This document shows positions 10,314 through 33,021 of a stretch of DNA of 64,000 nucleotides, in pieces. A program made the position numbers and the translations under genes. Position 1 is the first letter of the stretch. Each line of letters starts with the position of its first letter. The DNA is taken from assembly GCA_005879795.1 (NCBI GenBank), contig VBKJ01000134.1, positions 2,515-66,514 of the forward strand. Direction: 5' to 3'. Below the pieces are notes generated by a model, which was not told the DNA's origin, did no database searches, and saw only the letters and a list, made by a program, of their open reading frames with translations. Source of the DNA: Deltaproteobacteria bacterium. Its GTDB lineage: Bacteria; Desulfobacterota; Binatia; DP-6.

Positions 10314-11118
10314 GGCGATCGGTCGCGCGCCGCGCCCGCCGGGCGCGCTCGCGCGCCTCGGCGCGAGCCTCCTCGACGGCCTCCAGGTCCTCGGCGAGGC
10401 GACCCGCCTCTTCTTCGCGACCGTGCGCGCGGCGGCCTTCGTGCCCGCCGACCGCCAGCGCGTCGTCGTGCAGATGGTGCGCGTCGGGACCGACACGCTC
10501 CTGATCGGCGCGCTCCTCTCCCTCTTCGTCGGCATGGTGATGGTGGTGCAGGCGGCCGACCAGCTGCGCGACGTGAGCCAGGACATCCTCGGCCCGATCG
10601 TCGGGCTCGCCATGACGAAGGAGCTCGGGCCGGTCCTCATGGCCTTCCTCCTCGCCGGGCGAGCCGGGTCGGCGATGGCCGCGGAGCTGGGCTCGATGAC
10701 CGTCTACGACGAGATCAACGCGCTCCGCACCATGGACATCGACCCGGTGCGCTTCCTCGTCATGCCGCGCTTCGTGGCGGCCACGGTCGCGCTTCCCGTG
10801 CTCATCCTCTACGCCGACTTCATCGGCGTGTGGGGCGGGGCCGCCGTGGTCGCCGCCGACCCGGCGATCACGATCCCGGTCAGCAGCTACTTCGCGCGCA
10901 TGCTCGAGTGGGTGCACTTCACCGACCTCGTCGTGGGCCTGGTGAAGGGCGTGGTCTTCGGCATGGTGGCCTCGATCCTGCCCTGCACCTTCGGGCTGCG
11001 CACGCGCGGCGGCACCGAGGGCATCGCCGCCTCGACCACCGCGGCCGTGGTGTGGAGCTTCATCCTGATCCTGGTCTTCGACTTCCTGATCGTGCGCGTT
11101 ACCTTCGCGCTCGACTAG
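10303..11118 (+). CDS. mlaE: ABC transporter permease, MlaE/YrbE family
   Basis: 271 aa from MAVEAIGRAP (ATG 10303). It has multipass TM segments and the MlaE-type conserved core (GPVLMAFLLAGRAGSAMAAELGSM). Confidence 0.8.
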   Translation: MAVEAIGRAPRPPGALARLGASLLDGLQVLGEATRLFFATVRAAAFVPADRQRVVVQMVRVGTDTLLIGALLSLFVGMVMVVQAADQLRDVSQDILGPIVGLAMTKELGPVLMAFLLAGRAGSAMAAELGSMTVYDEINALRTMDIDPVRFLVMPRFVAATVALPVLILYADFIGVWGGAAVVAADPAITIPVSSYFARMLEWVHFTDLVVGLVKGVVFGMVASILPCTFGLRTRGGTEGIAASTTAAVVWSFILILVFDFLIVRVTFALD

Positions 11119-11739: not shown

Positions 11740-12939
11740 ATGAGGACGCTCGTACCCTTCCTGCTCAGTCTCGTCTCGCTGCTCGGACCGCGCAGCGGAT
11801 GGGGTTGTCAACTGCCTGCGACCGGGCAGACGACGTGTTGGGACACCAACGGGAGCGTCGTCCCGTGTGCCGGCACGGGTCAGGACGGCGACCTCCGGGA
11901 GGGAGCCCCGCTCGCGTACGTCGACAACGGAGACGGGACGGTCACGGACGTGACCACCGGGCTCGTGTGGGAGAAGCTCTCGAACGACGGGACGGTGCAC
12001 GACAAGGACAACTTGTACACGTGGGCCAACGCGTTCGCGGGGCACGTGGCGACGCTCAACGGCACGACCTTCGCGGGCCACGCCGACTGGCGGCTGCCGA
12101 ATTTGCGGGAGCTGCAGAGCATCGCGAACTACCAGAACGCCCTGCCGGCGGTGTCCCCGGCCTTCAACAACAACTGCTCGTCGGGCTGCCCCGTGACCAC
12201 GTGCAGCTGCACCTACAACGGCGACTACTGGTCGTCCACGTCCGAGGCCCTCAGCCCGTCGCATGCGTGGTTCGTGGACTTCCAGGACGGCCTCCTGGCC
12301 ACGGGCGGTAAGACCGGCACCGAACCCGTTCGGGCCGTGCGGGGCGGCTCGACGTCCTGCCCGCTGCCTGCGACCGGGCAGACGACGTGTTGGGACAGCA
12401 GTGGGAGCGTCATCCCGTGTGCCGGCACGGGTCAGGACGGCGACCTCCGGGAGGGAGCCCCGCTCACGTACGTCGACAACGGGAACGGGACGGTCACGGA
12501 CGTGAACACCGGGCTCGTGTGGGAGAAGCTCTCGGACGACGGGACGGTCCACGACAAGGACAACTTGTACACGTGGGCCAACGCGTTCACCGGGCACGTG
12601 GCGATACTCAACGGCATGAGCTTCGCCGGCCACGCCGACTGGCGGGTACCGAACGTGCGCGAGCTGCAGAGCATCCTGAACTACCAGAACGTCCTACCGC
12701 CCGTGTCCCCCGCCTTCAACAACAACTGCTCGGCGGGCTGCTCCGCGACCACGTGCAGCTGCACCCTCGAGGGCGACTACTGGTCGTCCACGTCCAGCGT
12801 CTCCGGTCCGTCGAATGCGTGGTTCGTCGGCTTCCAGTACGCCAACGTGAACTCCTTCGGCAGGACTGGCGGCAAGAGTGGCACGGCCTCCGTTCGGGCC
12901 GTGCGCGGCAGCTCCAGCTGTTGCGGGTGCGGTGGGTGA
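11740..12939 (+). CDS. Secreted protein with two tandem DUF1566 (Lcl C-terminal-like) domains
   Basis: 399 aa with a signal peptide. Two repeats of about 185 aa each contain TGLVWEKLS.DGTVHDKDNLYTWANAF, the WRLPN(L/V)RELQSI motif, DYWSST and a Cys-rich tail. Confidence 0.6.
   Translation: MRTLVPFLLSLVSLLGPRSGWGCQLPATGQTTCWDTNGSVVPCAGTGQDGDLREGAPLAYVDNGDGTVTDVTTGLVWEKLSNDGTVHDKDNLYTWANAFAGHVATLNGTTFAGHADWRLPNLRELQSIANYQNALPAVSPAFNNNCSSGCPVTTCSCTYNGDYWSSTSEALSPSHAWFVDFQDGLLATGGKTGTEPVRAVRGGSTSCPLPATGQTTCWDSSGSVIPCAGTGQDGDLREGAPLTYVDNGNGTVTDVNTGLVWEKLSDDGTVHDKDNLYTWANAFTGHVAILNGMSFAGHADWRVPNVRELQSILNYQNVLPPVSPAFNNNCSAGCSATTCSCTLEGDYWSSTSSVSGPSNAWFVGFQYANVNSFGRTGGKSGTASVRAVRGSSSCCGCGG
11806..12912 (+). 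repeat. Direct tandem duplication (2 units of about 553 bp) inside the DUF1566 gene
   Basis: Unit 2 (about 12358-12912) repeats unit 1 (about 11806-12357) with high nucleotide identity; for example CTGCCTGCGACCGGGCAGACGACGTGTTGGGACA occurs at 11811 and 12363. The duplication is in frame. Confidence 0.8.
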
Positions 12940-13332: not shown

Positions 13333-14100
13333 ATGGCGGTGGCGGCCGAGCGCGCGAAGGGCGTACCGGTCGAGCTGGCCGGAGTACGGAAGTCGTACGA
13401 CGACCACCTCGTCCTGGCGGGCGTCGACCTGAGCGTGGCGCCGGGCGAGCTGGTGGCCATCGTCGGCCAGAGCGGCACGGGGAAGTCGGTGCTGCTGCGC
13501 CAGATCGTCGGCCTCGAGGGGCCGGACGCCGGCCGCATCACGGTGGGCGGGATCGAGCTGGGCGAGTACCTCGCCCTCCCGCCCGAGGAGAAGCCCTTCC
13601 GCATCGCCATGGTCTTCCAATCCTCCGCGCTCCTGGCCTCGCTCACCGTGGGCGAGAACGTGGGGCTGCGCCTGCGCGAGCGCGGCCGCCACGCACCGGC
13701 CGAGATCGCCGCCATCACCCGCCGCGTCCTCGAGCAGGTGGAGCTTGCCGGCACGGAAGAGAAGCTCCCGGGCGAGCTGTCGGGCGGCATGCGCAAGCGG
13801 GTCGCGATCGCGCGCGCGCTCGCCATCGACCCCGAGCTCATCCTCTACGACGAGCCGACCGCCGACCTGGACCCCATCCTGACCGAGCAGATCGGGCAGC
13901 TGATCGCGCGCATCCGCACGCTGCGCGGCCACACCCAGCTCATCGTCACGCACAACCTGCCCCTGGCGCGCGCCATCGCCGACCGCATCGCGGTGCTCGC
14001 CGAGGGCCGCATTGCCGAGTGCGTCACGCCCGCCGAGCTCGCCGCGAGCCGCCACCCGCTCACGCGCGAGTTCCTGCGGGCGTCCGCCCTCGCCGGCTAG
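13333..14100 (+). CDS. mlaF: ABC transporter ATP-binding protein, MlaF-like
   Basis: 255 aa with a Walker A (GQSGTGKS), an ABC signature (LSGGMRKRVAIARAL) and a Walker B (LILYDEPTADLD). Confidence 0.8.
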   Translation: MAVAAERAKGVPVELAGVRKSYDDHLVLAGVDLSVAPGELVAIVGQSGTGKSVLLRQIVGLEGPDAGRITVGGIELGEYLALPPEEKPFRIAMVFQSSALLASLTVGENVGLRLRERGRHAPAEIAAITRRVLEQVELAGTEEKLPGELSGGMRKRVAIARALAIDPELILYDEPTADLDPILTEQIGQLIARIRTLRGHTQLIVTHNLPLARAIADRIAVLAEGRIAECVTPAELAASRHPLTREFLRASALAG

Positions 14101-14108
14101 GAGACGCC

Positions 14109-15077
14109 ATGCTCACCAACGAACAGCGGATCGGCATCTTCTTCATCGTGGGGCTCGTGCTCTTCTTCATCGCGATCGAGCTGACGCTCGGCCTCGGGCT
14201 CTTCACCCGCCGTTACCCGCTCTACGCCACCTTCCGCGACGTGCAGGGCCTCGACACGGGGGCCGACGTGCGGGTCGCGGGCATCAAGGCGGGCCGCGTC
14301 GAGAGCATGCGCATCGAGCACGGCGCCGTGGTCGTCAAGATGGCGATCGACGCGCGTTTCGAGGTGAAGAAGGACTCGCTCGCGCGCCTCGACTTCCGGG
14401 CGCTCAGCGGCGACCGCTTCATCGCCCTCTCGCTCGGCACGCCGACCGCCAGGCGCGCCGAGCCGGGCGACACCCTCGAGGGCGAGACGCCGGCCAGCTT
14501 CACCGACGTGGTCGACAAGCTCTCGACGGTCGCCGAGAGCGTGACCAACCTGACCGACAACCTGAACCGCAACGCCGAGCGCCTGCTCGCCAACCTGGCC
14601 GACCTGGTCGAGGAGAACCAGGGCGCGATCGGCGCCACGGCGCAGAACCTCGCCTCCATCACCGGGAAGCTCGACCGGGGGACGGGGACGCTCGGGCTCC
14701 TGCTCAACGACCGGGCGCTCTACGACCGGGTCACCGACACCATGGGCGACGTGCGCCGGTCGGTCGCGGACCTGGGCGTCGTGGCGCACGACCTGGCCGA
14801 GGGCAAGGGCACGCTCGGCAAGCTCGTGAGCCAGGACGACGGCCTCTACGCGGAGGTGCGCGAGACGGTCGCGAGCCTCGGCGCCACGGCCCGCAACGCC
14901 GAGGAGATCACCGACAACCTGCGCACGGGCCAGGGCACGGTCGGCAAGGCGCTCACCGACGACTCCCTGTACACCGAGGCCCAGGACACGCTCCGCACCG
15001 TCAACCGCGCGACGCAGTCCGTCGAGGATCAGTCGGCGATCTCGCTCCTCGGGACGGTCGTGACCAGCCTGTTCTGA
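14109..15077 (+). CDS. mlaD: MCE-domain periplasmic substrate-binding protein, MlaD-like
   Basis: Starts MLTNEQRIGIFFIVGLVLFFIAI, an N-terminal TM segment. The MCE domain is present (ATFRDVQGLDTGADVRVAGIKAGRVES), followed by a long coiled C-terminal extension. Confidence 0.75.
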   Translation: MLTNEQRIGIFFIVGLVLFFIAIELTLGLGLFTRRYPLYATFRDVQGLDTGADVRVAGIKAGRVESMRIEHGAVVVKMAIDARFEVKKDSLARLDFRALSGDRFIALSLGTPTARRAEPGDTLEGETPASFTDVVDKLSTVAESVTNLTDNLNRNAERLLANLADLVEENQGAIGATAQNLASITGKLDRGTGTLGLLLNDRALYDRVTDTMGDVRRSVADLGVVAHDLAEGKGTLGKLVSQDDGLYAEVRETVASLGATARNAEEITDNLRTGQGTVGKALTDDSLYTEAQDTLRTVNRATQSVEDQSAISLLGTVVTSLF

Positions 15078-15086
15078 ACGGGCGCC

Positions 15087-15845
15087 TCACCCCGCCATCG
15101 TGAGTCCGCCCGACACGCTCAGCACCTGTCCGGTCACGTAGGCGGCCTCGTCCGAGACGAGATAGGCGACCGCGCCGGCCACGTCCTCGGGCTGGGCCAG
15201 CCGGCCGAGCGGGATGGTCCGCTGCATGCTGGCCAGGATCTTCTGGCCGCGCTCGCCCGCCATCACGTCGCGCAGCAGCTGGGTGTCCGCGGGGCCGGGG
15301 CAGACCACGTTCACCGTGATGCCGTGGCGGGCCAGCTCCCGCGCGAGCGCCTTCGAGAAGCCGATGAGCGCTGCCTTGCAGCCGGAGTACACCGCTTCGC
15401 CCGTGCTGCCCACGCGCCCGGCGTCCGAGGAGATGCTGACGATCCGGCCGCGCCCGCGCGCGACCATGCCCTGCACCACGGCGCGCGTTGCGTTGAGCGC
15501 GCCCTTGAAGTTGACGGCGATCAGCCGGTCCCAGAGCGCCGGGTCGCTCTCGAGGAAGGGCGCCAGGCGCTCCCAGCCGGCGTTGTTGACGAGCACGTCG
15601 ATCGGGCCGAGGGCATCACCGACGGAGCCCACGGCGGCCTCGACGGCGACCAGGTTTCTCACGTCGGCGGGGGCGCCGAGCGCCCGCCCGCCCGCGGCGA
15701 CGATCTCGTTCGCGACCGCGCGCGCGCTCGCACCGTCCAGGTCGGCGATGCCGACCGCCATCCCGGCGCGCGCGAGGCGGAGCGCGATGGCGCGGCCGAT
15801 GCCGCGCCCACCGCCCGTCACGAGCGCGACCGCGTCGGTCAATTG
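15087..15845 (-). CDS. SDR-family oxidoreductase (3-hydroxyacyl-CoA / 3-oxoacyl reductase-like)
   Basis: Glycine-rich NAD(P)-binding loop TGGGRGIG, catalytic motif YSGCKAALIGFSK and the NNAG motif. The probable TTG start overlaps the MaoC stop. Confidence 0.75.
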   Translation of the reverse strand, partial: QLTDAVALVTGGGRGIGRAIALRLARAGMAVGIADLDGASARAVANEIVAAGGRALGAPADVRNLVAVEAAVGSVGDALGPIDVLVNNAGWERLAPFLESDPALWDRLIAVNFKGALNATRAVVQGMVARGRGRIVSISSDAGRVGSTGEAVYSGCKAALIGFSKALARELARHGITVNVVCPGPADTQLLRDVMAGERGQKILASMQRTIPLGRLAQPEDVAGAVAYLVSDEAAYVTGQVLSVSGGLTMAG

Positions 15846-16273
15846 CGCGACGGGAGGGCCGCGCTGAAGGTGCCGCTCACCGCGACTTCGCCCTTCTGGT
15901 TGAGCGCCAGCACCTCGCCGTCGATGCGCTTCTCGCCGTTGTGCTCGTACTTCTTGGTGACCTTGCCCTTGCAGGTGATGGTGTCGCCCGGCCAGACGCG
16001 CGTCGCGAAACGCACCTTCATGCGGCGGAGGTTCTCGGCGCCGACGTAGTCGGTCACGCACTTGCCGACGAAGGCCGCGGTGAGCATGCCGTGTCCGAAG
16101 ACGCTCGGGTTGCCCGCCGCGCGCGCGAACTCCTCGTCGGTGTGGATGGGGTTGAAGTCGCCCGAGGCGCCCGCGTAGCGGACCAGGTCCATGCGCGCCA
16201 AGCGCTCGACCACGAAGGGCGGGACCGCGCCACCCTCCTGCACGTCCTCGAAGAAGAGCTTCCTCCGCTCCAT
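15839..16273 (-). CDS. MaoC-like (R)-specific enoyl-CoA hydratase, hot-dog fold, subunit B
   Basis: 144 aa. Contains the MaoC signature (RYAGASGDFNPIHTDEEFA). Confidence 0.75.
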   Translation of the reverse strand: MERRKLFFEDVQEGGAVPPFVVERLARMDLVRYAGASGDFNPIHTDEEFARAAGNPSVFGHGMLTAAFVGKCVTDYVGAENLRRMKVRFATRVWPGDTITCKGKVTKKYEHNGEKRIDGEVLALNQKGEVAVSGTFSAALPSRN

Positions 16274-16283
16274 GTGCGCCTCC

Positions 16284-16733
16284 CTACGCCTTGACCGTTC
16301 CTTCGGTCATGATGAGCGTGTTGCGCGAGTACGCTACGACCTCGTCCCGCTGGTTGCGGCACTCGCTCTCCATGAGCACGAACAGCATGTTCCCGCCGCG
16401 GGAGCCCTGCTTCTCGAAGACGTCCTTGGTGCGAGAGCGGATCCGGAGCACGTCGCCGGCCCGGATGGGCTTCAGGTACTCGAACTCCTGCTCGCCGTGC
16501 AGGAGCCGGCGCATGTCGAGCTTGACGGCGCGCACGCCGCCGCTGGTCGCACCCTCGGTCCAGTGCGCGACCGTCATCAGGAAGGTGGGCGGCACGAGCG
16601 CGTCGTCGCCGGTGAAGGCTGGGTTGTCGTCCTTGATGGCGCGCGCGAACTCGCGGATCTTCCCGTACTCCACCCGCAGGGTGGTCTCGGGCCCCCACTG
16701 GCCGATGGCGGACCGGTCGATCTCCCAGGTCAT
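16284..16733 (-). CDS. Hot-dog-fold dehydratase/hydratase N-terminal-type subunit (MaoC N-terminal-like), subunit A
   Basis: 149 aa starting MTWEIDRSAIG. Its ATG overlaps the ACAD stop (ATGA). It pairs with the adjacent MaoC ORF, as in heterodimeric ChsH1/H2- or BbsH-like hydratases. Confidence 0.6.
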   Translation of the reverse strand: MTWEIDRSAIGQWGPETTLRVEYGKIREFARAIKDDNPAFTGDDALVPPTFLMTVAHWTEGATSGGVRAVKLDMRRLLHGEQEFEYLKPIRAGDVLRIRSRTKDVFEKQGSRGGNMLFVLMESECRNQRDEVVAYSRNTLIMTEGTVKA

Positions 16734-17863
16734 AACCCGATCAGTTGCGCGACGATCTCGCGGTTCCAGGTCGCGTCGCCGAAGGTCACCTCGGAGCTCT
16801 TCGCGCGCTTGAAGTAGATGTGCATGTCGTGCTCCCAGGTGAAGCCGATGCCGCCGTGGATCTGGATACCCTCGCCGGCGGTGTGCCGGTAGGCATCCGA
16901 GCAGTAGGCCTTTGCCATTGCAGCTGCAAGGGGGCCCTCGGGCACGTCGTTCGCGACCGCCCAGGCCGCGTAGTAGGTCGCGGACTTCGAGCTCTCCACC
17001 TCGACCAGCATGTTGGCGCACTTGTGCTGGATCGCCTGGAAGCTGCCGATCGGGCGCCCGAACTGCTCGCGCACCTTGGCGTAGTCGACCGACATCTCGA
17101 GGACCTTCTGGGCTCCGCCGCACATCTCGGCCGAGAGCCCCACCTTGCCGCGGTCGACCACGCGCTCGAGGAGCTTCCAGCCCGCGCCCGCCTGGCCGAG
17201 CACGCGCTCCGCGGGCACGCTCACGTCCGCGAGCGCCAGCTCGCAGAGCTTGCGCGTCTGGTCCATGGTCTTGAGCAGCGTGGCGGTGACGCCGGGCGCC
17301 TTCGCGTCGACGAGGAAGAGGCTCACGCCCTCGGCACCCGTCGAGCCGGGAGCGCGGCCGGCGACGATCAGCAGATCGGCCGTGTGTGCGTCGGGGACGA
17401 AGAGCTTGGTCCCGGAGAGCTTGTAGCCCCCGGCCGCCGGCCGCGCCTCGAGCCCGATGCCCTCCGCGTCCCAGCGCGCGCTCGGCTCGAGCTGGGCGAG
17501 GGTGACGCGCAGCCTGCCCGCCGCGAGCCTCGGCAGGAGGTCCTCCTTCTGCGCCGCGCTCCCGCCCGCGTCGATCGCCACCGCGCCGACCAGGGTCGAG
17601 AAGAACGGGCCCGGCAGCACGACGCGGCCCATCTCCTCGAGGACGACGATCATGTCGACGAAGTCGAGGCCCGCGCCGCCGTGCGCCTCGGGGAGGATGA
17701 GGCCCATCCACCCGAGCTCGGCCATCTTCCGCCACTGCTCGTCGCGGAAGCCCTGCTCGTCCTCCATCATCTGGCGGACGTAGGTCATGGGGCATTCCTT
17801 GGCGAGGAAGTCGCGGGCCGATTTGCGCAGCATCTCCTGCTCTTCGCTGAAGCCGAAGTCCAT
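16730..17863 (-). CDS. Acyl-CoA dehydrogenase
   Basis: 377 aa starting MDFGFSEEQEMLRKSARDF. The ACAD C-terminal helical domain (QIHGGIGFTWEHDMHIYFKRAK) is present. Confidence 0.85.
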   Translation of the reverse strand: MDFGFSEEQEMLRKSARDFLAKECPMTYVRQMMEDEQGFRDEQWRKMAELGWMGLILPEAHGGAGLDFVDMIVVLEEMGRVVLPGPFFSTLVGAVAIDAGGSAAQKEDLLPRLAAGRLRVTLAQLEPSARWDAEGIGLEARPAAGGYKLSGTKLFVPDAHTADLLIVAGRAPGSTGAEGVSLFLVDAKAPGVTATLLKTMDQTRKLCELALADVSVPAERVLGQAGAGWKLLERVVDRGKVGLSAEMCGGAQKVLEMSVDYAKVREQFGRPIGSFQAIQHKCANMLVEVESSKSATYYAAWAVANDVPEGPLAAAMAKAYCSDAYRHTAGEGIQIHGGIGFTWEHDMHIYFKRAKSSEVTFGDATWNREIVAQLIGL

Positions 17864-17931
17864 CGCCGTCCCTTCTCAGCCGTTGGCGAGCCCGGTCACG
17901 CAGCCGGCCACGGCCACACGCTCGTGGATGT

Positions 17932-19320
17932 TCATGTCGGCCTCGCTTTCCAGAAGTAGTTGTTGAAGCCGCCACCCTCGTGGATGCGGCGGAACACGAG
18001 CTCGAGGGGCATGTCGATCTCGACCCGCTCGGGCTCGCAGTCCGTGAGCTGGCAGTAGAGCCGGCCCCCGCCGTCCAGGTCGATCACCGCGTGCGAGGTG
18101 GGCGGGTCCGGGCTCTCGAAGAGGTAATCGTTGGTGAAGGTGAAGAGCCTCCCGCGCCGCGCGAGCTTCACCTCCTCGAGCCCGCCCGGGTGCGCGCACT
18201 CGATGCACACGCGGTGCTTCGGGAACTGGACCGTGCCGCACTTGGGGCACCTGCCGCCGTAGAGCGGGAGCAGCTCCTTGCGGTCGCGGAACATGACCAC
18301 CGCCGACGACGGGTCGCTGGTGACGGTCTCCCTGCGCACGAGCCCGCGGAAGCGCGCGTAGCGGCCGTAGGACGGGAGCGTGCGCTTCACCTCGATCTGC
18401 CGCCACACGCTGGGGCCCGCGGCCGCCGCCGGCGCGGTCACCCGCAGGAGGAGCGCGTCGGCCCCGTCGCCGTAGCCCGCGACCAGGATCAGGTCGCCGG
18501 GCTTCGCGCGCTCGAGTGCGGCGGCGAGGGCGAGGAGCGGCTGCGCCGCGCCCGTGTCGCCGACCGTCGTCCAGAAGCCGTCCTGGAGCTGCCGCTTCGC
18601 ATCGAGGCCGAGCGCCTTGGCGACGGCCTGCGGCGCGCGGAGGTTGGGGGTGGGCAGGATGACCGTGGCGAGGTCCTGGGGCGGGACCCTCGCCTTCGCG
18701 AGCACGCCCTTCACCGCCTCGCCGAGGACGCGGCCGTAGCCGTACCGGGCCTCGAACGCGCCCGGGAAGCTCCTCGGGAATTCCTGCTCCCGCGTCCGCC
18801 AGGTGCCCAGGAACTCGTCCGCGATCGAGTGCGTGGCGACCACCTGGACGCGCTCCGCCCCCCTGCCGAGGAGCACCGCCGCGCCCGCATCGCCGTAGCT
18901 CTGCTCGGCGATCGAGTCGGGCTCGCCCAGCCGGCACTCGCCCGCGGCGACCAGGACGCCGCGCGCGCCGCCCGCGAGCGCGTCGAGCCCGGCCAGCAGC
19001 GCCGAGGTGGCGGCGCGCAGCGTGTCGGTGAAGTCGGCGGTACGCGTCGCGCCCGGCAGGTCGAGGACGGCGGCGATGGTCGCGGCGCCCTGCTTCTCCG
19101 TGTACGGCGAGGTGGTGGTCGCGAAAAAGACAGCGTCGGGCCGCTCGCCCGCCCCCTCCAGCGCGAGCGCGGCGTTCACCGCCAGCGTGAGGCTGTCCTC
19201 GTCGTGGTTGGCGACCGCCTTCTCGCCGCCGGCCGCCTGCCCGCCCCATTCCCTGGCGATCAGCTCGCGCGGGAGCCGGTAGCGCGGGATGCAGGCGGCG
19301 GCGGCCACGATGCCGGGCAT
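17932..19320 (-). CDS. Thiolase-superfamily HMG-CoA-synthase-like enzyme fused to a C-terminal DUF35 (Zn-ribbon + OB-fold) domain
   Basis: 462 aa from MPGIVAAAACIPRYRL (ATG 19320..19318). The C-terminus has a GGRCPKCGTVQFPKHRVCIECA zinc ribbon typical of DUF35. Confidence 0.65.
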   Translation of the reverse strand: MPGIVAAAACIPRYRLPRELIAREWGGQAAGGEKAVANHDEDSLTLAVNAALALEGAGERPDAVFFATTTSPYTEKQGAATIAAVLDLPGATRTADFTDTLRAATSALLAGLDALAGGARGVLVAAGECRLGEPDSIAEQSYGDAGAAVLLGRGAERVQVVATHSIADEFLGTWRTREQEFPRSFPGAFEARYGYGRVLGEAVKGVLAKARVPPQDLATVILPTPNLRAPQAVAKALGLDAKRQLQDGFWTTVGDTGAAQPLLALAAALERAKPGDLILVAGYGDGADALLLRVTAPAAAAGPSVWRQIEVKRTLPSYGRYARFRGLVRRETVTSDPSSAVVMFRDRKELLPLYGGRCPKCGTVQFPKHRVCIECAHPGGLEEVKLARRGRLFTFTNDYLFESPDPPTSHAVIDLDGGGRLYCQLTDCEPERVEIDMPLELVFRRIHEGGGFNNYFWKARPT

Positions 19321-19339
19321 GACGGCTGGATCCCCCCTG

Positions 19340-20470
19340 TCAGACGACGCCGCGCGCGCGCAGCCCCGCGACGTCGGCGCGCGAGTACCCAAGCGCGGCG
19401 AGGACGGCGTCGGTGTGCTCGCCGAGCTCCGGGGGCGGCGTGCGGATGGTGGGCGGCGTGTCGGAGAGCTTGACCGGGTTGCCGAGCGTGCGCCGCCCGT
19501 CGCCCTGCTCGACCACCATGCCGCGGTGGCGCACCTGCCGATCGGCGAGCGCCTCGCCGAGCGTCGCCACCGGGCCGAAGCAGATGTCGAGGTCGGCCAG
19601 CTCCGCGACCCACTCGGCCATCGTCTTCTCGCGGAACCGGGCCCGCAGGCGGCGAAACATGTCCTCGCGCTCCGCCCCCTCGGCGAACTGCTTCTCGACG
19701 AGCTCCGGCATGCCGAGGCGCTCGCAGAGCGTGCGCCAGAAGTGCGGCTCGAGGGCGCCCACCGTCACGTGGCGGCCGTCGCGGGTCTCGTAAATGGCAT
19801 AGCAGGGGTGGTGGCCCGTGAGCATGGTGTCGCCGCGCGCCGGCTCCTGCTTCTCGGCGAGATAGCGCATCACGTTCACCACCTGCCAGGCGAGCGCACC
19901 GTCCAGCATGGCGATGTCGACGGACTGCCCGCTGCCCGTCTCCTCGCGCGCCGCGAGGGCCGCCAGGATGCCCACCGCCGCCATGAGCGCGCCCCCGCCG
20001 ATGTCGGCGATCTGCACGCCCGGGATGACGGGCGGTCCGCCCGCCGGCCCGGTCAGCCCGATCACGCCCGCGAAGCCCAGGTAGTTGACGTCGTGCCCGA
20101 CGCGGTCGCGATAGGGCCCGTCCTGGCCGTAGCCGGAGATCGAGCAGTAGACGAGGCGCGGATTCAGCTGCCCGAGCGTCTCGTAGTCGACCCCCAGGCG
20201 CGCCGCCGCCCCGGGCCGCGAGCCCTCGAGCACCACGTCCGCGTCGCGCGCCAGGCGGTGGAAGATGGCGCGCCCCTCGGGCACCTTCAGGTTGAGGGTC
20301 AGGCTCCGCTTGTTGCGGCCGAGGAGCGGGATGCCCATGCCCATCGGGTCGGTGGGCGAGTAGACGGCGAGCACGTCCATCCCGAGGTCCGCGAGCAGCA
20401 TGGAGCAGAACGGCCCCGGCAGCTGGCGCGACAGATCCAGCATCCGGAACCGCGACAGCGCACCGGGCAT
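19340..20470 (-). CDS. CoA-transferase family III (CaiB/BaiF/BbsEF-type)
   Basis: 376 aa. Family III features: LKVPEGRAIFHRLARDADVVLE, the RPG motif and GYGQDGPYRDRVGHD. Confidence 0.8.
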   Translation of the reverse strand: MPGALSRFRMLDLSRQLPGPFCSMLLADLGMDVLAVYSPTDPMGMGIPLLGRNKRSLTLNLKVPEGRAIFHRLARDADVVLEGSRPGAAARLGVDYETLGQLNPRLVYCSISGYGQDGPYRDRVGHDVNYLGFAGVIGLTGPAGGPPVIPGVQIADIGGGALMAAVGILAALAAREETGSGQSVDIAMLDGALAWQVVNVMRYLAEKQEPARGDTMLTGHHPCYAIYETRDGRHVTVGALEPHFWRTLCERLGMPELVEKQFAEGAEREDMFRRLRARFREKTMAEWVAELADLDICFGPVATLGEALADRQVRHRGMVVEQGDGRRTLGNPVKLSDTPPTIRTPPPELGEHTDAVLAALGYSRADVAGLRARGVV

Positions 20471-20850
20471 GATCCGGCTCGAGTACTACGATCGCGCCAC
20501 CCGTGACAACCTCCGCCGAGGGAGTGCTGTCCCCTCCAGACCGCGCCACGCCCGAGCGGGGATCGTTGCGGCCGGTCCCGTCTCGTGCCGCAAGGATCCC
20601 GGGCGTCTCGGCGTAGCATGGACCGCCTGACGCCGCTGAGCGGATGGAGCGTTGATGAAGGCTTTGGAACCTGGGGCGGCACGTCTGCCGACCGCGGCTT
20701 CGCCGCGGTCGGCACGACCCGAGCGCCCGAAGGGCGCGAGTCGGCCACGAGGGGGAGCCGCGCGCCCCGCGCGCGGCGACGGGGGTCCGGGGGGCATCGG
20801 AAGCGCGGAGCGCGGCGAAGCCGCGCGAGCACTGGACGGGCCCCCCGGGT

Positions 20851-22119
20851 CTAATGCCCGGCGTTCACCAGCGCCGCGACCGTGAACCAGTCGTCCGTCA
20901 CCCCCGCCTTCTCGCCCTGGTTGAAGTACCAGCCCTGCTCGCCCGGAAAACGGTGGCTCGGGAGGGAGGCCTTGGTCGCGTGCTCGAGCTGCACGTCGAC
21001 CATGACGATGGCCGGGGCGAAGATGCGCTCGTCCGGGTACTCGACGGCGCCGGGCGTGTCGAGGATCTTCCTCCGGATCATCACGTCGTTGATCCAGATC
21101 TTCCACAGCTCCCCGGCGCGATCGTACATGTCCGAGTACGGGATGCCCCACGCCTCCCTGTCGATGAAGAGGACGCGCTTGCCGAAGGCGTACTGCGAGA
21201 GCTTGGAGACGCCCTCGACGACGTGCACGCGCCGCCGCTCCCACACCTCGTCGAAGGCCCAGTCGACCCTGTCGTTCCACTGGACCGGGAAGTGCCGGCC
21301 GTGCGCCACCGCGAGCAGATCCCGCTCGCCGAGGTAGCGCCAGTCCATCCACGCGATGTGCCCCGCGTAGCCGCCGTAGCTGTCGACGTCCGTGTCCTGC
21401 CCGAAGAGCGCGTCCGAGCGCTGCGCGGTGGAGAGCCGGCGCACGCGGCGCAGCGCCGGCAGGTAGAGCCAGGCGTCGTCCTGCTTGGCAGCGTCCAGGT
21501 AGCGGTAGCTGACGAAGCCGACGCCCTTCACGTCGAAGGGCTCGAGGATCGGGTAGAGCCCCTGCTGGAGCTCGTAGCCGCTCGGGTTGGGCGCCTTCTC
21601 GGGCTTCGGGTCGACGTAGAGCCGCCCGACCCAGTAGAGGCGCCGGAAGTGATCGATCAAGAAGTGACGCTCGACCGTCATCGGGCCGTGGTCCGCGATC
21701 GCCCCGGTGTCGGCGTCGAAGTTGCGCGCATCGAGGTCGTCGGTCGCGAAGAAGTTGTGGTCGTAGTTCCACATGATCTTGACCGCGACCTGCGGGTCCT
21801 TCGCGTCGATGAAGGGGAAAGGCAGCCCCGCGACGTAGTCGCGCAGCGTCACCCCGTCGGCGGCGAGCCGCACCTGGCCCGAGTACCGCTCCGTCGCCTC
21901 CCGGTAGGCGCGCGGCCACTCGATGCGCCGGCTCTCGCCGACGGTGAGCGGGAACCCGTGCCGAACACACCACTCGAGCCCGGGCGAGATCAGCTCCCGC
22001 ACCTGCTCGACGTTCGCCTCGGTGATGCGGTCCCCCGCTGCAACGTCCGCCCGTGCTGCCCCGCCGAAGACGAGCGCCACCACGCCCGCCACGGCGACCC
22101 GCGCTGCCGGAAGCCCCAC
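20851..22119 (-). CDS. Secreted DUF1329-like family protein, paralog 1 of 4 (start uncertain, between 22119 and 22272)
   Basis: It shares ISPGLEWC..GFP, LYLPALRRVRRLSTAQRSDALFGQDTDVDSYGGY and SHRFPGEQGWYFNQGEKAG ... AALVNAGH with the three downstream paralogs. It has a signal peptide (VAVAGVVALVFGGAARA). Assignment to Pfam DUF1329 is from memory of the family. Confidence 0.6.
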   Translation of the reverse strand: MGLPAARVAVAGVVALVFGGAARADVAAGDRITEANVEQVRELISPGLEWCVRHGFPLTVGESRRIEWPRAYREATERYSGQVRLAADGVTLRDYVAGLPFPFIDAKDPQVAVKIMWNYDHNFFATDDLDARNFDADTGAIADHGPMTVERHFLIDHFRRLYWVGRLYVDPKPEKAPNPSGYELQQGLYPILEPFDVKGVGFVSYRYLDAAKQDDAWLYLPALRRVRRLSTAQRSDALFGQDTDVDSYGGYAGHIAWMDWRYLGERDLLAVAHGRHFPVQWNDRVDWAFDEVWERRRVHVVEGVSKLSQYAFGKRVLFIDREAWGIPYSDMYDRAGELWKIWINDVMIRRKILDTPGAVEYPDERIFAPAIVMVDVQLEHATKASLPSHRFPGEQGWYFNQGEKAGVTDDWFTVAALVNAGH

Positions 22120-22273
22120 TGAACGCCGGCCGCGCTGTCGCCGCGGCGCTTCATGCGGGCGCGGGGGCGCCGGCGCAGCGCCTATGAGGCGCCGAGCGCG
22201 ACGGGCGGCCAGAGCTCCGGCGCCGAGCGGCGCCGAATCGAAGCGGAGCCGGCGCCCCCGCGCCCGCAGCACG

Positions 22274-23539
22274 TCAATGCCCTGCGTTCACGAGCGCGGC
22301 CACCGTGAAGAACTCGTCGGAGATCCCTGCCTTCTCGCCCTGGTTGAAGTACCAGCCCTGCTCGCCCGGGAAGCGGTGGCTCGGGAGCGCCGCCTTGGTC
22401 GCGTGCTCGAGCTGCATGTCCACCATGACGATGGAGGGCTGGAACCCGATGTCGTCCGGGTACTCGATCACGCCCGCGCCGTCGAAGGCCTTCTTCTTGA
22501 AGCTCCAGTCGTTGATCCAGATCTTCCACAGCTCGCCCGAGCGGTCGTAGATGTCGGAGTACGGGACCACCCACGCCTCCTTGTCGATGAAGATGACGCG
22601 CTTGCCGTAGGCGTACTGCGGCAGCTTGGAGACGCCCTCCACCACCCACACCTTGCGTTTCTCCCACACGTCGTCGAAGGCCCAGTCGGTCTTGTCGTCC
22701 CACTTCACGGGGTAGTGCCGCGCGTGCATGGTGCCGAGCAGCTCGCGCTCGCCGATGAACTTCCAGGTCATCCAGGCGACGTGGCCGGCGTAGCCGTAGT
22801 AGCTGTCGACGTCGGTGTCCTGGCCGAAGAGCGCGTCCGAGCGCTGGGCGGTGGAGAGGCGGCGCACGCGGCGGAGCGAGGGCAGATAGAGCCACGAGTC
22901 GTCCTGCTTCGTGGGGTCGATGTAGCGCTGGCCGACCGCGCCCACGCCCTTCAGGTCGAACGGCTCGAGGACCGGGTAGAGCCCGAGCTGGCTCCGGTAG
23001 CCGTTCGGGTTCGGCTTCTCGGGTTTGGGGTCGACGTAGAGGCGGCCGGTCCAGAACTGCGAGCGCAGGTGGTCGAGGAGGAAGTGCCGCTCGATGCTCA
23101 TCGGGCCGTGGTCGGCGACGGCGCCCGTGTCGGCGTCGAAGTTCCGCAGATCGAGATCGTCGGTCGGGTTGAACTTGTACTCGTAGTCCCACATGATCTT
23201 GAGCGCGATCTGCGGATCCTTCGGATCCAGGTCCGGGAAAGGCTGGCCGGCGACGAAGTTCTGCACGCTGAGGCCGTCGGGCGCGAGCTTCACCTGGCCG
23301 GAGTACTTCTCGGTGGCCTCCTTGTAGGCCTTCGGCCACTCGATGCGCCTCGGCTCCACGATCGTCATCGGGAAGCCGCGCTTGATGCACCACTCCATGC
23401 CGGGCGAGATCAGGTCCTTCACCTTGTCGATGTTCTGATCGGTGATCCTGTCGCCGGGTGCGACCTCCGCGCGCGCCGCCAGCCCGAGCAGCGCGACGCC
23501 GAGCGCCACCGCGACCGCCACGCCGGGTCTTCTCGTCAT
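22274..23539 (-). CDS. Secreted DUF1329-like family protein, paralog 2
   Basis: 421 aa starting MTRRPGVAVAVALGVALLGLAARA (ATG 23539..23537 verified). It carries the same conserved blocks. The 801-aa ORF in this frame is read-through. Confidence 0.65.
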   Translation of the reverse strand: MTRRPGVAVAVALGVALLGLAARAEVAPGDRITDQNIDKVKDLISPGMEWCIKRGFPMTIVEPRRIEWPKAYKEATEKYSGQVKLAPDGLSVQNFVAGQPFPDLDPKDPQIALKIMWDYEYKFNPTDDLDLRNFDADTGAVADHGPMSIERHFLLDHLRSQFWTGRLYVDPKPEKPNPNGYRSQLGLYPVLEPFDLKGVGAVGQRYIDPTKQDDSWLYLPSLRRVRRLSTAQRSDALFGQDTDVDSYYGYAGHVAWMTWKFIGERELLGTMHARHYPVKWDDKTDWAFDDVWEKRKVWVVEGVSKLPQYAYGKRVIFIDKEAWVVPYSDIYDRSGELWKIWINDWSFKKKAFDGAGVIEYPDDIGFQPSIVMVDMQLEHATKAALPSHRFPGEQGWYFNQGEKAGISDEFFTVAALVNAGH

Positions 23540-23556
23540 CTTCGGCTCCTTCGCGA

Positions 23557-24825
23557 TCAGTGCCCCGCGTTCACGAGCGCCGCGACCGTGAACCACTCGT
23601 CGACGACGCCGGCCTTGTCGCCCTGGTGGTAGTACCAGCCCTGCTCGCCCGGGAAGCGGTGGCTCGGGAGCGCCGCCTTGGTCGCGTGCTCGAGCTGCAT
23701 GTCCACCATCACGATCGCGGGCGCGAAGGGCAGCTCGTCCTCGTACTCGAGCACCCCCGCGCCCTCGAAGGCCTTCTTGCGGAAGCCCACGTCGTTGATC
23801 CAGATCTTCCACAGCTCGCCGGAGCGGTCGTAGATGTCGGTGTAGGGGATGCCCCAGGTCTCCTTGTCGATGAAGAGCACGCGCTTGCCGTAGGCGTACT
23901 GCGGCAGCTTCGAGATGCCCTCGAGCACGTAGACGTGCCGCTTCTCCCACACCTCGTCGAAGGCCCAGTCGACCTTCTCGTGCCACTTCACCGGGTAGTG
24001 CTGCGCGTGGACGATGCCCAGCAGGTCGCGCTCGCCGAGGTACTTCCAGTCCATCCAGCCGACCTGGCCCGCATAGCCGTAGTAGCTGTCGACGTCGGTG
24101 TCCTGGCCGAAGAGCGCGTCGGAGCGCTGCGCGGTGGACAGGCGACGGACCCGCCGCAGTGACGGCAGGTAGAGCCACGAGTCGTCCTGCTTGTCCGGGG
24201 AGAGGTAGCGGTTGCCGAGCGCGCCCACGCCCTTCAGGTCGAAGGGCTCGAGCACCGGGTAGAGGCCCTGCTGCGCGCGGTAGCCGTTGGGGTTCGGCTT
24301 CTCCGGCTTGGGGTCGACGTACAGGCGCCCGTTCCAGAACAGGCGGCGGAAGTGGTCGAGGAGGAAGTGGCGCTCGATCGTCATCGGCCCATGGTCGGCG
24401 ATGGACCCGGTGTCGGCGTCGAAGTTCCGCAGGTCGGTGTCGTCGAGGCCGTTCACGTACCCGTAGTCGTAGTTGAACATGACCTTGATGACGAACTGCG
24501 GGTCCTTCGCGTCGGGATTGGGGAAGGGCTGGCCGGCGACGTAGTTCTGCATCGTGCGGCCGTCGGGCGACAGCTTCACCTGCGCGGCGTACTTCTCGGT
24601 CGCCTCCTTGTAGGCACGTGGCCACTCCACCGCCTTGGTCGCCCCGATGGTCATCGGGAAGCCGTGCTTGATGCACCACTCCATCCCGGGCGAGATCAGC
24701 TCCTTCACCTTGTCGATGTTCGCCTCGGTGATCCTGTCCCCGATCGCGACGTCGGCGCGCCCGGGCGCCGCGAGCAGCACGGGCACGACGGCGAGCGCGG
24801 CGGCGAGCCTCCGTGTCGTGGTCAT
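23557..24825 (-). CDS. Secreted DUF1329-like family protein, paralog 3
   Basis: 422 aa starting MTTTRRLAAALAVVPVLLAAPGRA (ATG 24825..24823 verified). Confidence 0.65.
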   Translation of the reverse strand: MTTTRRLAAALAVVPVLLAAPGRADVAIGDRITEANIDKVKELISPGMEWCIKHGFPMTIGATKAVEWPRAYKEATEKYAAQVKLSPDGRTMQNYVAGQPFPNPDAKDPQFVIKVMFNYDYGYVNGLDDTDLRNFDADTGSIADHGPMTIERHFLLDHFRRLFWNGRLYVDPKPEKPNPNGYRAQQGLYPVLEPFDLKGVGALGNRYLSPDKQDDSWLYLPSLRRVRRLSTAQRSDALFGQDTDVDSYYGYAGQVGWMDWKYLGERDLLGIVHAQHYPVKWHEKVDWAFDEVWEKRHVYVLEGISKLPQYAYGKRVLFIDKETWGIPYTDIYDRSGELWKIWINDVGFRKKAFEGAGVLEYEDELPFAPAIVMVDMQLEHATKAALPSHRFPGEQGWYYHQGDKAGVVDEWFTVAALVNAGH

Positions 24826-24911
24826 CGATTCGCCCTCCCTCGGCTGGAAACGCCCGGACCGCCGGCCGATCGCCTGGCGGCCCCGGGTGGCGACATCCCC
24901 GACGCTCCGCT

Positions 24912-26189
24912 CTAGTGTCCGGCGTTCACCAGCGCGGCCACCGTGAACCAGTCGTCGGTGACGCCCGCCTTCTCGCTCTGGTTGAAGTACCAGCCCTGCT
25001 CCCCCGGGAAGCGGTGGCTCGGGAGCGAGGCTTTGGTCGCATGCTCGAGCTGCATGTCCACCATGACGATCGCCGGGATGAAGCCGCGGTCCTCCCCGTA
25101 GTCGATCACGTTGGCGCCCTCGAAGGCCTTCGGGCGGAAGCTCACGTCGTTGACCCAGACCTTCCAGAGCTCGCCGGAGCGGTCGTAGATGTCGGAGTAC
25201 GGGATGATCCAGGCCTCTTTGTCGACGAAGATGACGCGCTTGCCGTAGGCGTACTGCGGGAGCTTGGAGATGCCCTCGATGACGTACACCCGGCGCTTCT
25301 CCCACGTCTCGTCGAATGCCCAGTCGACCTTGTCGTTCCACTTCACCGGGTAGTTCTTCGCGTGGTAGCAGCTCAGGAGGTCGCGATCGCCCAGGTACTT
25401 GAAGTCCATCCAGGCAATGTGGCCGCTGTAGCCGTAGTAGCTGTCGACGTCGGTGTCCTGCCCGAAGAGCGCGTCCGAGCGCTGCGCGGTGGAGAGGCGG
25501 CGCACCCGCCGGAGTGACGGCAGGTAGAGCCACGAGTCGTCCTGCTTCTCGGAGGAGATGTAGCGGTTGCCGAGCGCGCCCACGCCCTTCAAGTCGAACG
25601 GCTCGAGGATCGGGTAGAGGCCCTGCTGGGCGCGGTAGCCGTTGGGGTTCGGCTTGTCGGGCTTGGGATCGACGTAGAGCCGGCCGGTCCAGAAGAGGCG
25701 GCGGAAGTGGTCGAGCAGGAAGTGGCGCTCCACCGTGAGCGGCCCGTGGTCGGCGATCGCCCCCGTGTCGGCATCGAAGTTGCGCAGGTCGACGTCGTCG
25801 GTGGTCAGGTGGTTGTAGCTCCAGTTCCACATGATCTTGAGCGCGACCTGCGGGTCCTTGGTGTCGACGTTCGGGAAGGGCAGCCCGGCGACGTAGTTGA
25901 GGACGTTGAGACCATCGGGCGTGAGCTTCACCTGGCTCGCGTACTTCTCGGTCGCCTCCTTGTACGCCTTCGGCCACTCGACCCGCTTGGTCTCGCCGAT
26001 GGTCATCGGCCAGCCGTGCTTGATGCACCACTCCATCCCGGGCGAGATGAGATCCTTGACCTTGTCGATGTTCTGCTCGGTGATCCGGTCGCCGGGTACG
26101 ACGTCGGCGCGCGCGGTGAAGGGAAGGATCGCGAGCGCGAACGTGGCGGCGCCCGCCAGCGCCAGCCACCAGCCGGGCTTCTTCGACAT
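24912..26189 (-). CDS. Secreted DUF1329-like family protein, paralog 4
   Basis: 425 aa starting MSKKPGWWLALAGAATFALAILPFTARA (ATG 26189..26187 verified). Confidence 0.65.
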   Translation of the reverse strand: MSKKPGWWLALAGAATFALAILPFTARADVVPGDRITEQNIDKVKDLISPGMEWCIKHGWPMTIGETKRVEWPKAYKEATEKYASQVKLTPDGLNVLNYVAGLPFPNVDTKDPQVALKIMWNWSYNHLTTDDVDLRNFDADTGAIADHGPLTVERHFLLDHFRRLFWTGRLYVDPKPDKPNPNGYRAQQGLYPILEPFDLKGVGALGNRYISSEKQDDSWLYLPSLRRVRRLSTAQRSDALFGQDTDVDSYYGYSGHIAWMDFKYLGDRDLLSCYHAKNYPVKWNDKVDWAFDETWEKRRVYVIEGISKLPQYAYGKRVIFVDKEAWIIPYSDIYDRSGELWKVWVNDVSFRPKAFEGANVIDYGEDRGFIPAIVMVDMQLEHATKASLPSHRFPGEQGWYFNQSEKAGVTDDWFTVAALVNAGH

Positions 26190-26305: not shown

Positions 26306-26872
26306 CTAGCCGCCGATCGGCGCCCCCGCCTCCGCGGCCGGGACACGGTCCGCCGACAGGGCCTGGAAGATGAGATCCTCGTAGTAGCGCACGTTCCGTC
26401 CGATCAGGACCACGTCCGGGGTCCCTCGACGCCGCGCGTAAACGGCGGTGCCGGTCGGATTCGGCCCGCCGATGGTGACCTCGAGCCGGTCGCCGCTCGT
26501 GCAGACCACTTCAACCCTGGCCGCCTGCTGGCCGAGCCCGTAGGTGTCCGCGTCTGCGTCCGCCCCTCCGACGCGGGCGATCTCGGTCGCATCGGCGAGG
26601 GCGTTCGCGAACGCGGCGATCAGGTCCGGGGCGATGGGCGCCCCCGCGGGCTCGACGATCGTCCACCCCGCCCCCTCGCGCCGCGAGACGACGGTCCGGC
26701 TGCCGCGCACCAGCCGGACCTCGCGCAGCGTTGCGGGGTCCAGCCGGAGGAAGGATGGCGGCGCGGGGGCCTCCGTGCGGGCCGGCGGCTCCATACGCCC
26801 CTCGACGAACCAGTACTCGCCCGCCAGGGCGGCGAGCACGAGGTAGAGCAGCGCCACCTGCCGCCAGCGCAT
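26306..26872 (-). CDS. DUF4340-like secreted protein (accessory to GldG-type ABC systems)
   Basis: 188 aa with a signal anchor. It sits immediately downstream of GldG, as DUF4340 proteins typically do. It contains the pattern W.IVEPAGAPIAPDLIAAFANALAD. Confidence 0.4.
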   Translation of the reverse strand: MRWRQVALLYLVLAALAGEYWFVEGRMEPPARTEAPAPPSFLRLDPATLREVRLVRGSRTVVSRREGAGWTIVEPAGAPIAPDLIAAFANALADATEIARVGGADADADTYGLGQQAARVEVVCTSGDRLEVTIGGPNPTGTAVYARRRGTPDVVLIGRNVRYYEDLIFQALSADRVPAAEAGAPIGG

Positions 26873-26874
26873 GG

Positions 26875-28985: not shown

Positions 28986-28988
28986 GCT

Positions 28989-33006: not shown

Positions 33007-33021
33007 GGGAGTTCTCCCGTC

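Follow-up and report, generated by a model that had tools for sequence, protein, structure and literature searches.

Six genes of the operon and their catalytic residues

The DNA analysed here is a 64-kb stretch of a Binatia genome (contig VBKJ01000134.1; hereafter the window) with about 71% G+C, in which genes were placed by a call based on third-codon-position G+C (GC3) and domains were assigned using Pfam. Six closely spaced, co-directional genes occupy 15087-20470 of its minus strand and encode, in transcription order, a CoA_transf_3 protein, a fusion of an HMG-CoA synthase-like domain (HMGCS-like or HMGS-like) with DUF35, an acyl-CoA dehydrogenase (ACAD), two hot-dog subunits, termed HDA and HDB, and a short-chain dehydrogenase/reductase (SDR) (Table 1). 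Overlaps of 4 nt occur at three junctions of the cluster, and the same six-gene order was found again in many independent Binatia contigs. The tight packing and all domain families named in a preliminary description of this DNA were borne out by the gene call and by Pfam. Its reading of the cluster as a full β-oxidation cycle was not, since the cluster is without a thiolase, the HMGCS tetrad is lost, the CoA_transf_3 protein is of the racemase type and the ACAD is without its base Glu. A scan of 14800-21000 for promoters and terminators found none above chance.

Relatives were gathered by scanning GTDB species representatives for the fusion with a pattern built from 11 sequences, which gave at least 600 pattern matches. 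A relative of the fusion was encoded in 517 of those listed, and 80 loci were kept, from Binatia, Dehalococcoidia, Blastocatellia, Thermodesulfobacteriota, Syntrophaceae and other groups (cited by L numbers where needed).

The product of the first gene had been proposed to activate the substrate as a family III CoA-transferase, which its residues contradict. Its best PDB matches are MCR from Mycobacterium tuberculosis (1e-57, over the full length) and Far, followed at a lower level by SUGCT (2e-53) and, much lower, by BbsE/F (1e-29 to 1e-31). In an alignment with M. tuberculosis MCR, E. coli Frc and YfdE, and 20 locus homologs, the protein shows GHDVNY, with His126 of MCR, and ADIGGG, with Asp156 (M. 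tuberculosis numbering); the transferase-type motif (Y/F)xxxxQA was not found in it in the same alignment. All Binatia orthologs keep GHD(V/I)NY and ADIGGG, both of which are absent from Frc and YfdE, where AYENVAQA and AYDTIIQA, respectively, stand at the site of the His126 motif. Because His126 and Asp156 are present, and both are absent from genuine transferases, we assign the protein as a racemase, that is, as a predicted epimerase for 2-substituted acyl-CoA rather than an activating enzyme, which the label 'CoA-transferase' would hide.

The HMGCS-like domain of the fusion matches PhlA (6e-29) and the archaeal HMGCS 6esq_I (4e-23) in the PDB, and its C-terminal part matches the archaeal DUF35 subunit 6esq_E (8e-17), BbsA (3e-6), ChsH2-DUF35 and PhlB; the NCBIfam HMGCS models score it under their cutoffs. 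An AlphaFold2 model of moderate quality (pLDDT 65.5), which served solely to check the fold family, gave 6esq_I, PhlA (5mg5_A) and MucA (9vbt) as top Foldseek matches. The tetrad of 6esq_I, namely Glu82, Cys114, His and Asn, is replaced by Thr, Leu, Pro and Asp, and neither its Glu nor its Cys occurs in any of 141 family members (0/141) taken from a search of 1.8 billion representative proteins. What the family does keep is an invariant Cys4 zinc ribbon and, in the former HMGS domain, the polar residues T69, E75, D96, R102, R130, E139, D144 and W174-R175. Judged by these replacements, the HMGS-like domain appears to be catalytically dead, so that an 'HMG-CoA synthase' label would be given to an inactive protein, and the fusion is presumed to assist an SCP2-type thiolase as a non-catalytic partner or as a scaffold, after the manner of PhlA/PhlB. 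PhlA lacks the same tetrad residues and is regarded as structural (PMC6392133), and both PhlA and MucA are structural subunits without known catalysis (PMC6392133, PMC12960953). An ACAT/HMGS-DUF35 complex of Pseudomonas fluorescens contains this very type of fusion, likewise without the tetrad, and it cleaves acetoacetyl-CoA and cannot condense acetyl-CoA (PMC12960953).

A second non-catalytic subunit may be the ACAD. NCBIfam places it closest to pimD_small (228 bits) and then to IpdE2, both under cutoff, and its best PDB match is 6wy8_A, which is Tcur3481 of a heteromeric steroid ACAD; the α/β assignment of this chain is presumed from the alignment made here. Phe361 occupies the site of the MCAD base Glu376 (J-K loop, YEGT), and Gly239 that of the helix-G Glu of IVD and LCAD. 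LEPSARWD and KLFVPDA replace TEPxAGSD and KxFITNG, and the binding residues for the ADP moiety of FAD are conserved. The same base-site and flavin-motif features are seen in Chloroflexota orthologs (42-54% identical), which adjoin ACADs that score with pimC_large and have canonical motifs and the helix-G Glu, in 'FERS'. By these matches and residue states the ACAD is probably of the small or β-subunit type (PimD/IpdE2/Tcur3481-like) and would not be self-sufficient, which would make a lone 'acyl-CoA dehydrogenase' annotation misleading; its activity probably depends on a catalytic large subunit whose gene lies elsewhere.

In the hot-dog pair, HDB carries the hydratase-2 motif GDFNPIH, with the catalytic Asp and His, and HDA has DDNPAF, without the catalytic His as read from its sequence. 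HDB matches HadB and MaoC proteins (about 1e-15), hydratase 2 of MFE-2 (about 1e-8) and ChsH1/2 (4.5e-5) in the PDB; HDA is HadA by NCBIfam, and its sole PDB matches are the HadA/HadC-type chains 5zy8_A and 8pwz_A. Paired in a heterodimer, the two would provide a single active site. This agrees with the two-subunit MaoC-type hydratase that had been described, with one catalytic subunit, but does not support its proposed likeness to ChsH1/ChsH2, since by PDB match the pair is nearer to HadAB of mycobacterial type II fatty-acid synthesis (FAS-II; 1e-15) than to ChsH1/2 (4.5e-5). The further comparison with BbsH does not apply, as BbsH is a crotonase-family enzyme and not a MaoC protein.

The last gene product, the SDR, has BbsD as best PDB match (2.7e-52), closely followed by the (3R)-hydroxyacyl-CoA dehydrogenase of yeast MFE-2 (2et6, 1e-50), and its best NCBIfam match is BadH (321 bits, under cutoff). 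In 'GIADLD', β2 ends with an Asp, which under the SDR classification rules points to a preference for NAD. The enzyme is a probable NAD-dependent (3R)-3-hydroxyacyl-CoA dehydrogenase.

Deletion of the thiolase gene and selection on its partner

An SCP2-type thiolase gene lies directly 3' of the fusion gene in 61 of the 73 related loci with enough downstream sequence. In two Binatia loci, L087 and L088, which have the whole 20-kb synteny of the window in common and a fusion protein 79% identical to that of the window, an intact 382-aa thiolase is encoded between the fusion and the ACAD, with an ATGA overlap, and the thiolase of a closer relative, L090 (fusion 91% identical), is also intact. The thiolase of the intact relatives carries the motifs CxS, HDCF and GHP and scores 494 bits with NCBIfam PRK06157, against a cutoff of 403; the best PDB match of the L087 protein is 6esq_A (6.5e-67), the thiolase component of the tripartite archaeal complex. 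No thiolase gene was found in the six-gene cluster of the window, where a 19-codon relic alone remains. The HMGCS-like/DUF35 protein, which had been placed in the thiolase position of the cycle, is a dead protein that is normally the partner of a separate thiolase, and it is this thiolase that is deleted here.

The 68 bp that separate the fusion gene from the ACAD gene are the scar of a thiolase gene lost by microhomology deletion. They contain a mini-ORF (17935-17876, MNIHERVAVAGCVTGLANG and a stop codon) whose ATG shares nucleotides with the fusion gene's stop codon, and which aligns with the first ~10 and the last ~9 codons of the 382-aa thiolase of L087 and L090. A 9-nt direct repeat, GTCGGGTGC, marks the breakpoint; at either end of the thiolase gene it is translated as V-G-C. 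About 1.09 kb were removed, in frame, and the downstream gene retained both its coupled ATGA start and its ribosome-binding site. An assembly artefact was considered as the cause and ruled out, since the same junction sequence is found in three independent assemblies; the repeat, moreover, is just 9 nt long.

A second SCP2-type thiolase encoded in the window was considered as the missing partner. Its gene has a DUF35 gene of its own directly upstream, and the protein is 40% identical to the operon thiolase, by which it was rejected as the cognate enzyme; the two genes form a separate BbsAB-like pair, and a role as surrogate for the deleted thiolase is possible. On long contigs of thiolase-less relatives, no cognate thiolase was found among the best 120 homolog matches listed.

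Loss of the thiolase has recurred. A neighbor-joining tree of fusion proteins, built without bootstrap support, spreads the operons that lack a thiolase over at least three separate Binatia clades. In L091 (fusion 88% identical) the thiolase is absent, the junction differs from that of the window (3730-3810 of that locus) and the fusion protein is three residues longer at its C terminus (ALAGS before the stop), possibly as the result of an independent deletion. In L007 the thiolase carries a 5' frameshift or small deletion (4300-5410 of that locus). The fusion gene, in turn, is under purifying selection and has a selectable role without a cis-encoded thiolase, since its open reading frame is intact and its dN/dS (0.25-0.29) is like that of the neighboring genes (0.15-0.46), pairs of thiolase-less lineages included. 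Presumably, the fusion docks a thiolase encoded elsewhere or scaffolds other enzymes of the operon. Related soil populations in which the thiolase is intact, frameshifted or deleted, while its dead partner is still selected, amount to a natural experiment that makes the role of this subunit testable.

A proposed operon for R-specific β-oxidation of branched acyl-CoA

We consider it reasonably probable that the cluster is the remnant of a seven-gene Binatia operon for R-specific ('type 2') β-oxidation of 2-methyl-branched or other α-substituted, bulky acyl-CoA. In this pathway, the MCR-type racemase would interconvert 2R- and 2S-methylacyl-CoA; the ACAD, a putative PimD-like small subunit probably acting with a large subunit in trans, would form the 2,3-double bond; the HadA/HadB-like heterodimeric hot-dog hydratase would yield the (3R)-hydroxyacyl-CoA; and the NAD-type SDR, kin to BbsD and MFE-2, would oxidize it to 3-oxoacyl-CoA, which in the relatives would be cleaved by the SCP2-type thiolase, held by the dead HMGS-DUF35 fusion in a complex of the PhlACB or archaeal type. 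From the observed domain identities, residue states, deletion, synteny and selection we infer the order and direction of these reactions, the substrate class and the partners in trans. To this extent the preliminary description is supported in seeing a β-oxidation-type module for a bulky or α-substituted acyl-CoA, with which the single catalytic subunit of the hot-dog pair, an SDR nearest to BbsD and a DUF35 akin to BbsA and ChsH2-DUF35 agree.

A functional link between these enzymes is supported by their recurrence beside fusion-thiolase pairs, which in Chloroflexota, Bryobacterales and Latescibacterota are accompanied by genes for an MCR-type protein, an ACAD and an SDR, and at a Brocadiaceae locus by those for an SDR, an ACAD and a hot-dog protein. 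The placement of the operon at the end of an envelope transport array that is AmeBCD-like and includes a GldG-type ABC system (see below) suggests a hydrophobic substrate, and the most economical guess is a hydrophobic α-methyl-branched acid, for instance an isoprenoid-like one. Binatia have been described as aerobic degraders of alkanes and fatty acids (PMC8262859).

Several points weigh against this reading. No Glu stands at either canonical base site of the ACAD and its flavin-contact motifs are degenerate, and no gene for a PimC-like large subunit was found in the 64-kb window or within ±10 kb of any Binatia locus; because of these three facts the dehydrogenation step is unproven. The racemase gene is absent in the relatives L006, L018 and L020, the cluster is without an acid-activating enzyme, and both the preference for NAD and the catabolic direction are deduced from sequence rules. 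With the thiolase deleted, moreover, the pathway may be incomplete in this genome, or may end differently.

The ancestral seven genes correspond, fold for fold and in the same logical order, to peroxisomal β-oxidation of 2-methyl-branched acids and bile-acid side chains, with its family III-fold racemase AMACR (mycobacterial MCR being comparable), MFE-2, which unites a two-hot-dog hydratase 2 with a (3R)-specific SDR, and the SCP2-type thiolase of SCPx. In Binatia, however, the genes are split instead of fused as in MFE-2, an ACAD subunit replaces the acyl-CoA oxidase, and the thiolase, which is absent from the window, would be bound through HMGS-DUF35 in place of an SCP2 domain of its own. 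We read the operon as a putative bacterial split-gene analogue of the peroxisomal pathway, incomplete in this genome. For the thiolase module, a close parallel is the P. fluorescens ACAT/HMGS-DUF35 complex, likened here by its published description, in which HMGS and DUF35 are likewise fused, the E-C-H-N tetrad is lost and the partner thiolase has the CxS, HDxF and GHx motifs also seen in the adjoining thiolase of the window's relatives (Liao et al., Nat Commun 2026, PMC12960953). That complex has no assigned pathway, as is the case for about 1,000 bacterial HMGS/ACAT/DUF35 loci (PMC12960953), whereas the Binatia version lies inside a racemase/ACAD/hydratase/SDR operon, from which the thiolase is deleted in the window. 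The Friedel-Crafts acyltransferases PhlACB of Pseudomonas and MucABC of Streptococcus also combine a dead HMGS-like subunit with DUF35. Their thiolases are without HDxF and acylate small aromatic or tetramic acceptors, whereas the Binatia thiolase keeps HDCF, HMGS-like domain and DUF35 are fused, and there is no polyketide or non-ribosomal peptide synthetase context. The archaeal thiolase/HMGCS/DUF35 complex is matched in its three components by the L087 thiolase (6esq_A, 6.5e-67), the HMGS domain (6esq_I) and DUF35 (6esq_E). Its HMGCS, though, is active (Glu82, Cys114) and biosynthetic, whereas the Binatia domain is predicted to be dead and its proposed context catabolic. The kind of system is known; what is new is a pathway context for the complex of dead HMGS-DUF35 and thiolase, the stacking of non-catalytic subunits, and a recurrent, clean loss of the thiolase with its partner kept. 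On this reading the HMGS/ACAT/DUF35 complex would serve an operon for R-specific β-oxidation of branched chains as its thiolase module, and comparable associations are seen in several further phyla.

A complete cycle like those of bbs or igr, with a family III CoA-transferase as the activating enzyme for a succinate adduct or branched acid and the HMGCS-like/DUF35 protein as the one that cleaves the C-C bond instead of a thiolase, seems to us very unlikely. The CoA_transf_3 fold, BbsD as the best PDB match of the SDR, and the matches of DUF35 to BbsA (3e-6) and ChsH2-DUF35 would fit it, and bbsA-H and igr/ChsE-ChsH-Ltp2 also deal with α-substituted acyl-CoA by means of an SDR, a DUF35-linked thiolase-fold enzyme and heteromeric ACAD and hydratase subunits. 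Tested as a bbs operon, however, the cluster failed, its likeness to Bbs being limited to the SDR (BbsD, 2.7e-52) and to DUF35, with a weak match to BbsA. In place of a BbsEF-type transferase it has a racemase-type protein with His126 and without (Y/F)xxxxQA, nearer to MCR than to BbsE/F (1e-57 versus 1e-29 to 1e-31); its hydratase is of the hot-dog and not of the crotonase type, it has a single SDR instead of the BbsCD pair, and no thiolase; it differs from igr/ChsE-ChsH-Ltp2 by its weak similarity to ChsH1/2 (4.5e-5) and by a DUF35 that is fused to the HMGS-like domain and not to the hydratase. The tetrad is lost family-wide, and the ancestral cleavage enzyme is the separate thiolase that is deleted here. 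A succinate adduct, named as a candidate in the preliminary description, is not indicated as substrate, because Binatia have been described as aerobic (PMC8262859) and no fumarate-adding enzyme was seen among the gene annotations of the window. Biosynthesis has somewhat more in its favor, and we still think it unlikely: an ACP-independent, DUF35-scaffolded elongation of acyl-CoA like that of archaeal FAS would make a branched lipid for export by the adjacent RND/ABC/LolA-like machinery. In Sulfolobus, DUF35 mediates a complex of ketothiolase, SDR and MaoC with R stereochemistry (bioRxiv 10.1101/2024.07.05.601840), the HAE3 RND family to which the neighboring transporter belongs includes hopanoid exporters (PMC6394551), and HadAB, the dehydratase of FAS-II, is the best match of the hot-dog pair. 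Here, however, an ACAD takes the part of redox partner instead of an NADPH enoyl reductase; the SDR carries an NAD-type Asp after β2, in contrast to the archaeal reductase, which is specific for NADPH; elongation offers no obvious task for a racemase; this genome has lost the condensing enzyme by deletion; and the related P. fluorescens complex cleaves acetoacetyl-CoA and does not condense acetyl-CoA (PMC12960953). Catabolism is favored over such elongation because of the ACAD, the NAD-type SDR, the racemase and this published thiolysis-only behavior.

The loss of the thiolase admits two further explanations. It is improbable, in our view, that the dead HMGS domain has acquired a new activity, such as the retro-aldol cleavage of the Cys-less aldolases Ltp2 and Sal, which act with DUF35, or has become an essential organizer of a metabolon, so that a thiolase in the operon is dispensable. 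An intact fusion gene under purifying selection in several thiolase-less lineages, the polar residues conserved family-wide in the former HMGS domain and the precedent of DUF35-bound thiolase-fold aldolases (PMC12329534; PDB match 6ok1) speak for it; yet the closest solved relatives, PhlA and MucA, are structural and without known catalysis (PMC6392133, PMC12960953), the SDR, whose 3-oxo product needs thiolysis, is kept in the operon, and most relatives have a thiolase. The farther-reaching proposal that the dead fusion autonomously organizes a β-oxidation metabolon, or is a Cys-less C-C lyase of a new kind, with which repeated thiolase loss would be tolerated in natural Binatia populations without loss of the pathway, we hold to be a slight possibility, if a shade better than the others weighed here. 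Little probability likewise attaches to the operon being a decaying, non-functional remnant in which pseudo-enzymes are left. In its favor are the deletion of the thiolase here, its frameshift in L007 and its absence from several clades, together with three of the six products being of a non-catalytic subunit type, but all six open reading frames are intact, with dN/dS of 0.15-0.46, also between thiolase-less lineages, the deletion is in frame with the ATGA coupling and the downstream ribosome-binding site kept, and the non-catalytic subunits are ancestral, being common to thiolase-containing operons.

The transport array and neighboring genes

A co-directional array of about 19.5 kb has the six genes at its 3' end. 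In transcription order, the upstream part encodes a BNR/Ycf48-like protein, an HAE3-type RND/MMPL transporter with a PDZ insert, a 41-aa membrane mini-protein, an ABC ATPase, an ABC-2 permease, a GldG-like auxiliary protein, a DUF4340 protein and four tandem DUF1329/LolA-like paralogs (Table 1). The layout is kept in many Binatia contigs, with one DUF1329 copy. The four paralogs are mutually 71-78% identical and represent a lineage-specific amplification, because the related Binatia loci L004, L006 and L087 have a single copy at the same place. At the position of the mini-protein, these three loci have genes of 42-48 aa.

Table 1. Positions of the operon genes, the transport array and the second thiolase pair in the window.
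Feature	Position	Strand	Size and evidence
SDR	15087-15842	minus	251 aa; Pfam adh_short 2e-59
MaoC hot-dog subunit HDB	15839-16273	minus	144 aa; Pfam MaoC_dehydratas 3.5e-22
Hot-dog subunit HDA	16284-16733	minus	149 aa; Pfam FAS1_DH_region 4e-26, MFE-2_hydrat-2_N 3e-9
ACAD	16730-17863	minus	377 aa; Pfam ACAD N/M/C, three domains
Thiolase relic mini-ORF	17876-17935	minus	19 codons, MNIHERVAVAGCVTGLANG and stop
HMGCS-like/DUF35 fusion (FUS)	17932-19320	minus	462 aa; Pfam ACP_syn_III_C, zf-ChsH2 and OB_ChsH2_C
CoA_transf_3 protein, racemase-type	19340-20470	minus	376 aa; Pfam CoA_transf_3 2.4e-102
Four tandem DUF1329/LolA-like periplasmic proteins (AmeB-like)	20851-26189	minus	Pfam DUF1329 ~1e-50
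DUF4340 protein, GldG-like ABC auxiliary protein, ABC-2 permease, ABC ATPase	26306-29936	minus	Pfam; synteny kept in Binatia
41-aa transmembrane mini-protein, HAE3-type RND/MMPL with PDZ insert (AmeD-like), BNR/Ycf48-like protein (AmeC-like)	30186-34104	minus	Pfam, NCBIfam
41-aa hydrophobic mini-protein between RND transporter and ABC ATPase	30186-30311	minus	
Second SCP2-type thiolase	40532-41659	minus	PDB 6hsj 7e-90, BbsB 1e-67
DUF35 gene upstream of second thiolase	~41681-42070	minus	

In its upstream BNR/Ycf48-like, HAE3 RND and DUF1329 genes the array is like AmeABCD of Castellaniella and the DUF1302/DUF1329/BNR/RND systems of Pseudomonas, which are tied to hydrophobic substrates (PMC6394551; bioRxiv 10.1101/2020.07.04.188060). 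Unlike them, it has an RND transporter with a PDZ insert, an interposed GldG-type ABC system and four DUF1329 copies, and a DUF1302 outer-membrane protein was not found.

The last DUF1329 gene is separated from the racemase gene by a GC-rich gap of 380 bp (20471-20850) with several hairpins, for example GACCGCGGCGAAGCCGCGGTC; the equivalent gap in L087 is of 96 bp. It may hold elements like repetitive extragenic palindromes, or a regulatory region. Divergent from the array, 34794-36700 of the plus strand encodes a protein with an XRE-type helix-turn-helix and a σ54-dependent response regulator, both candidate regulators, and genes for ParA-like, T2SSE ATPase and response-regulator proteins lie beyond them.

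Downstream of the operon, and convergent with it, is an Mla system (MlaE, 10303-11118; MlaF, 13333-14100) in which a secreted Lcl_C-domain protein with an internal duplication (11740-12939, plus strand) is inserted between MlaE and MlaF; in L087, the MlaE, MlaF and MlaD genes are contiguous. Elsewhere in the window, an Lcp/MpaB-like oxygenase domain protein (46008-46898, minus strand), a two-subunit 2-oxoacid:ferredoxin oxidoreductase (47678-50556, plus strand) and a fatty-acid hydroxylase-family protein (61623-62447, minus strand) are encoded, genes which may relate to lipid or isoprenoid metabolism without a link to the operon.

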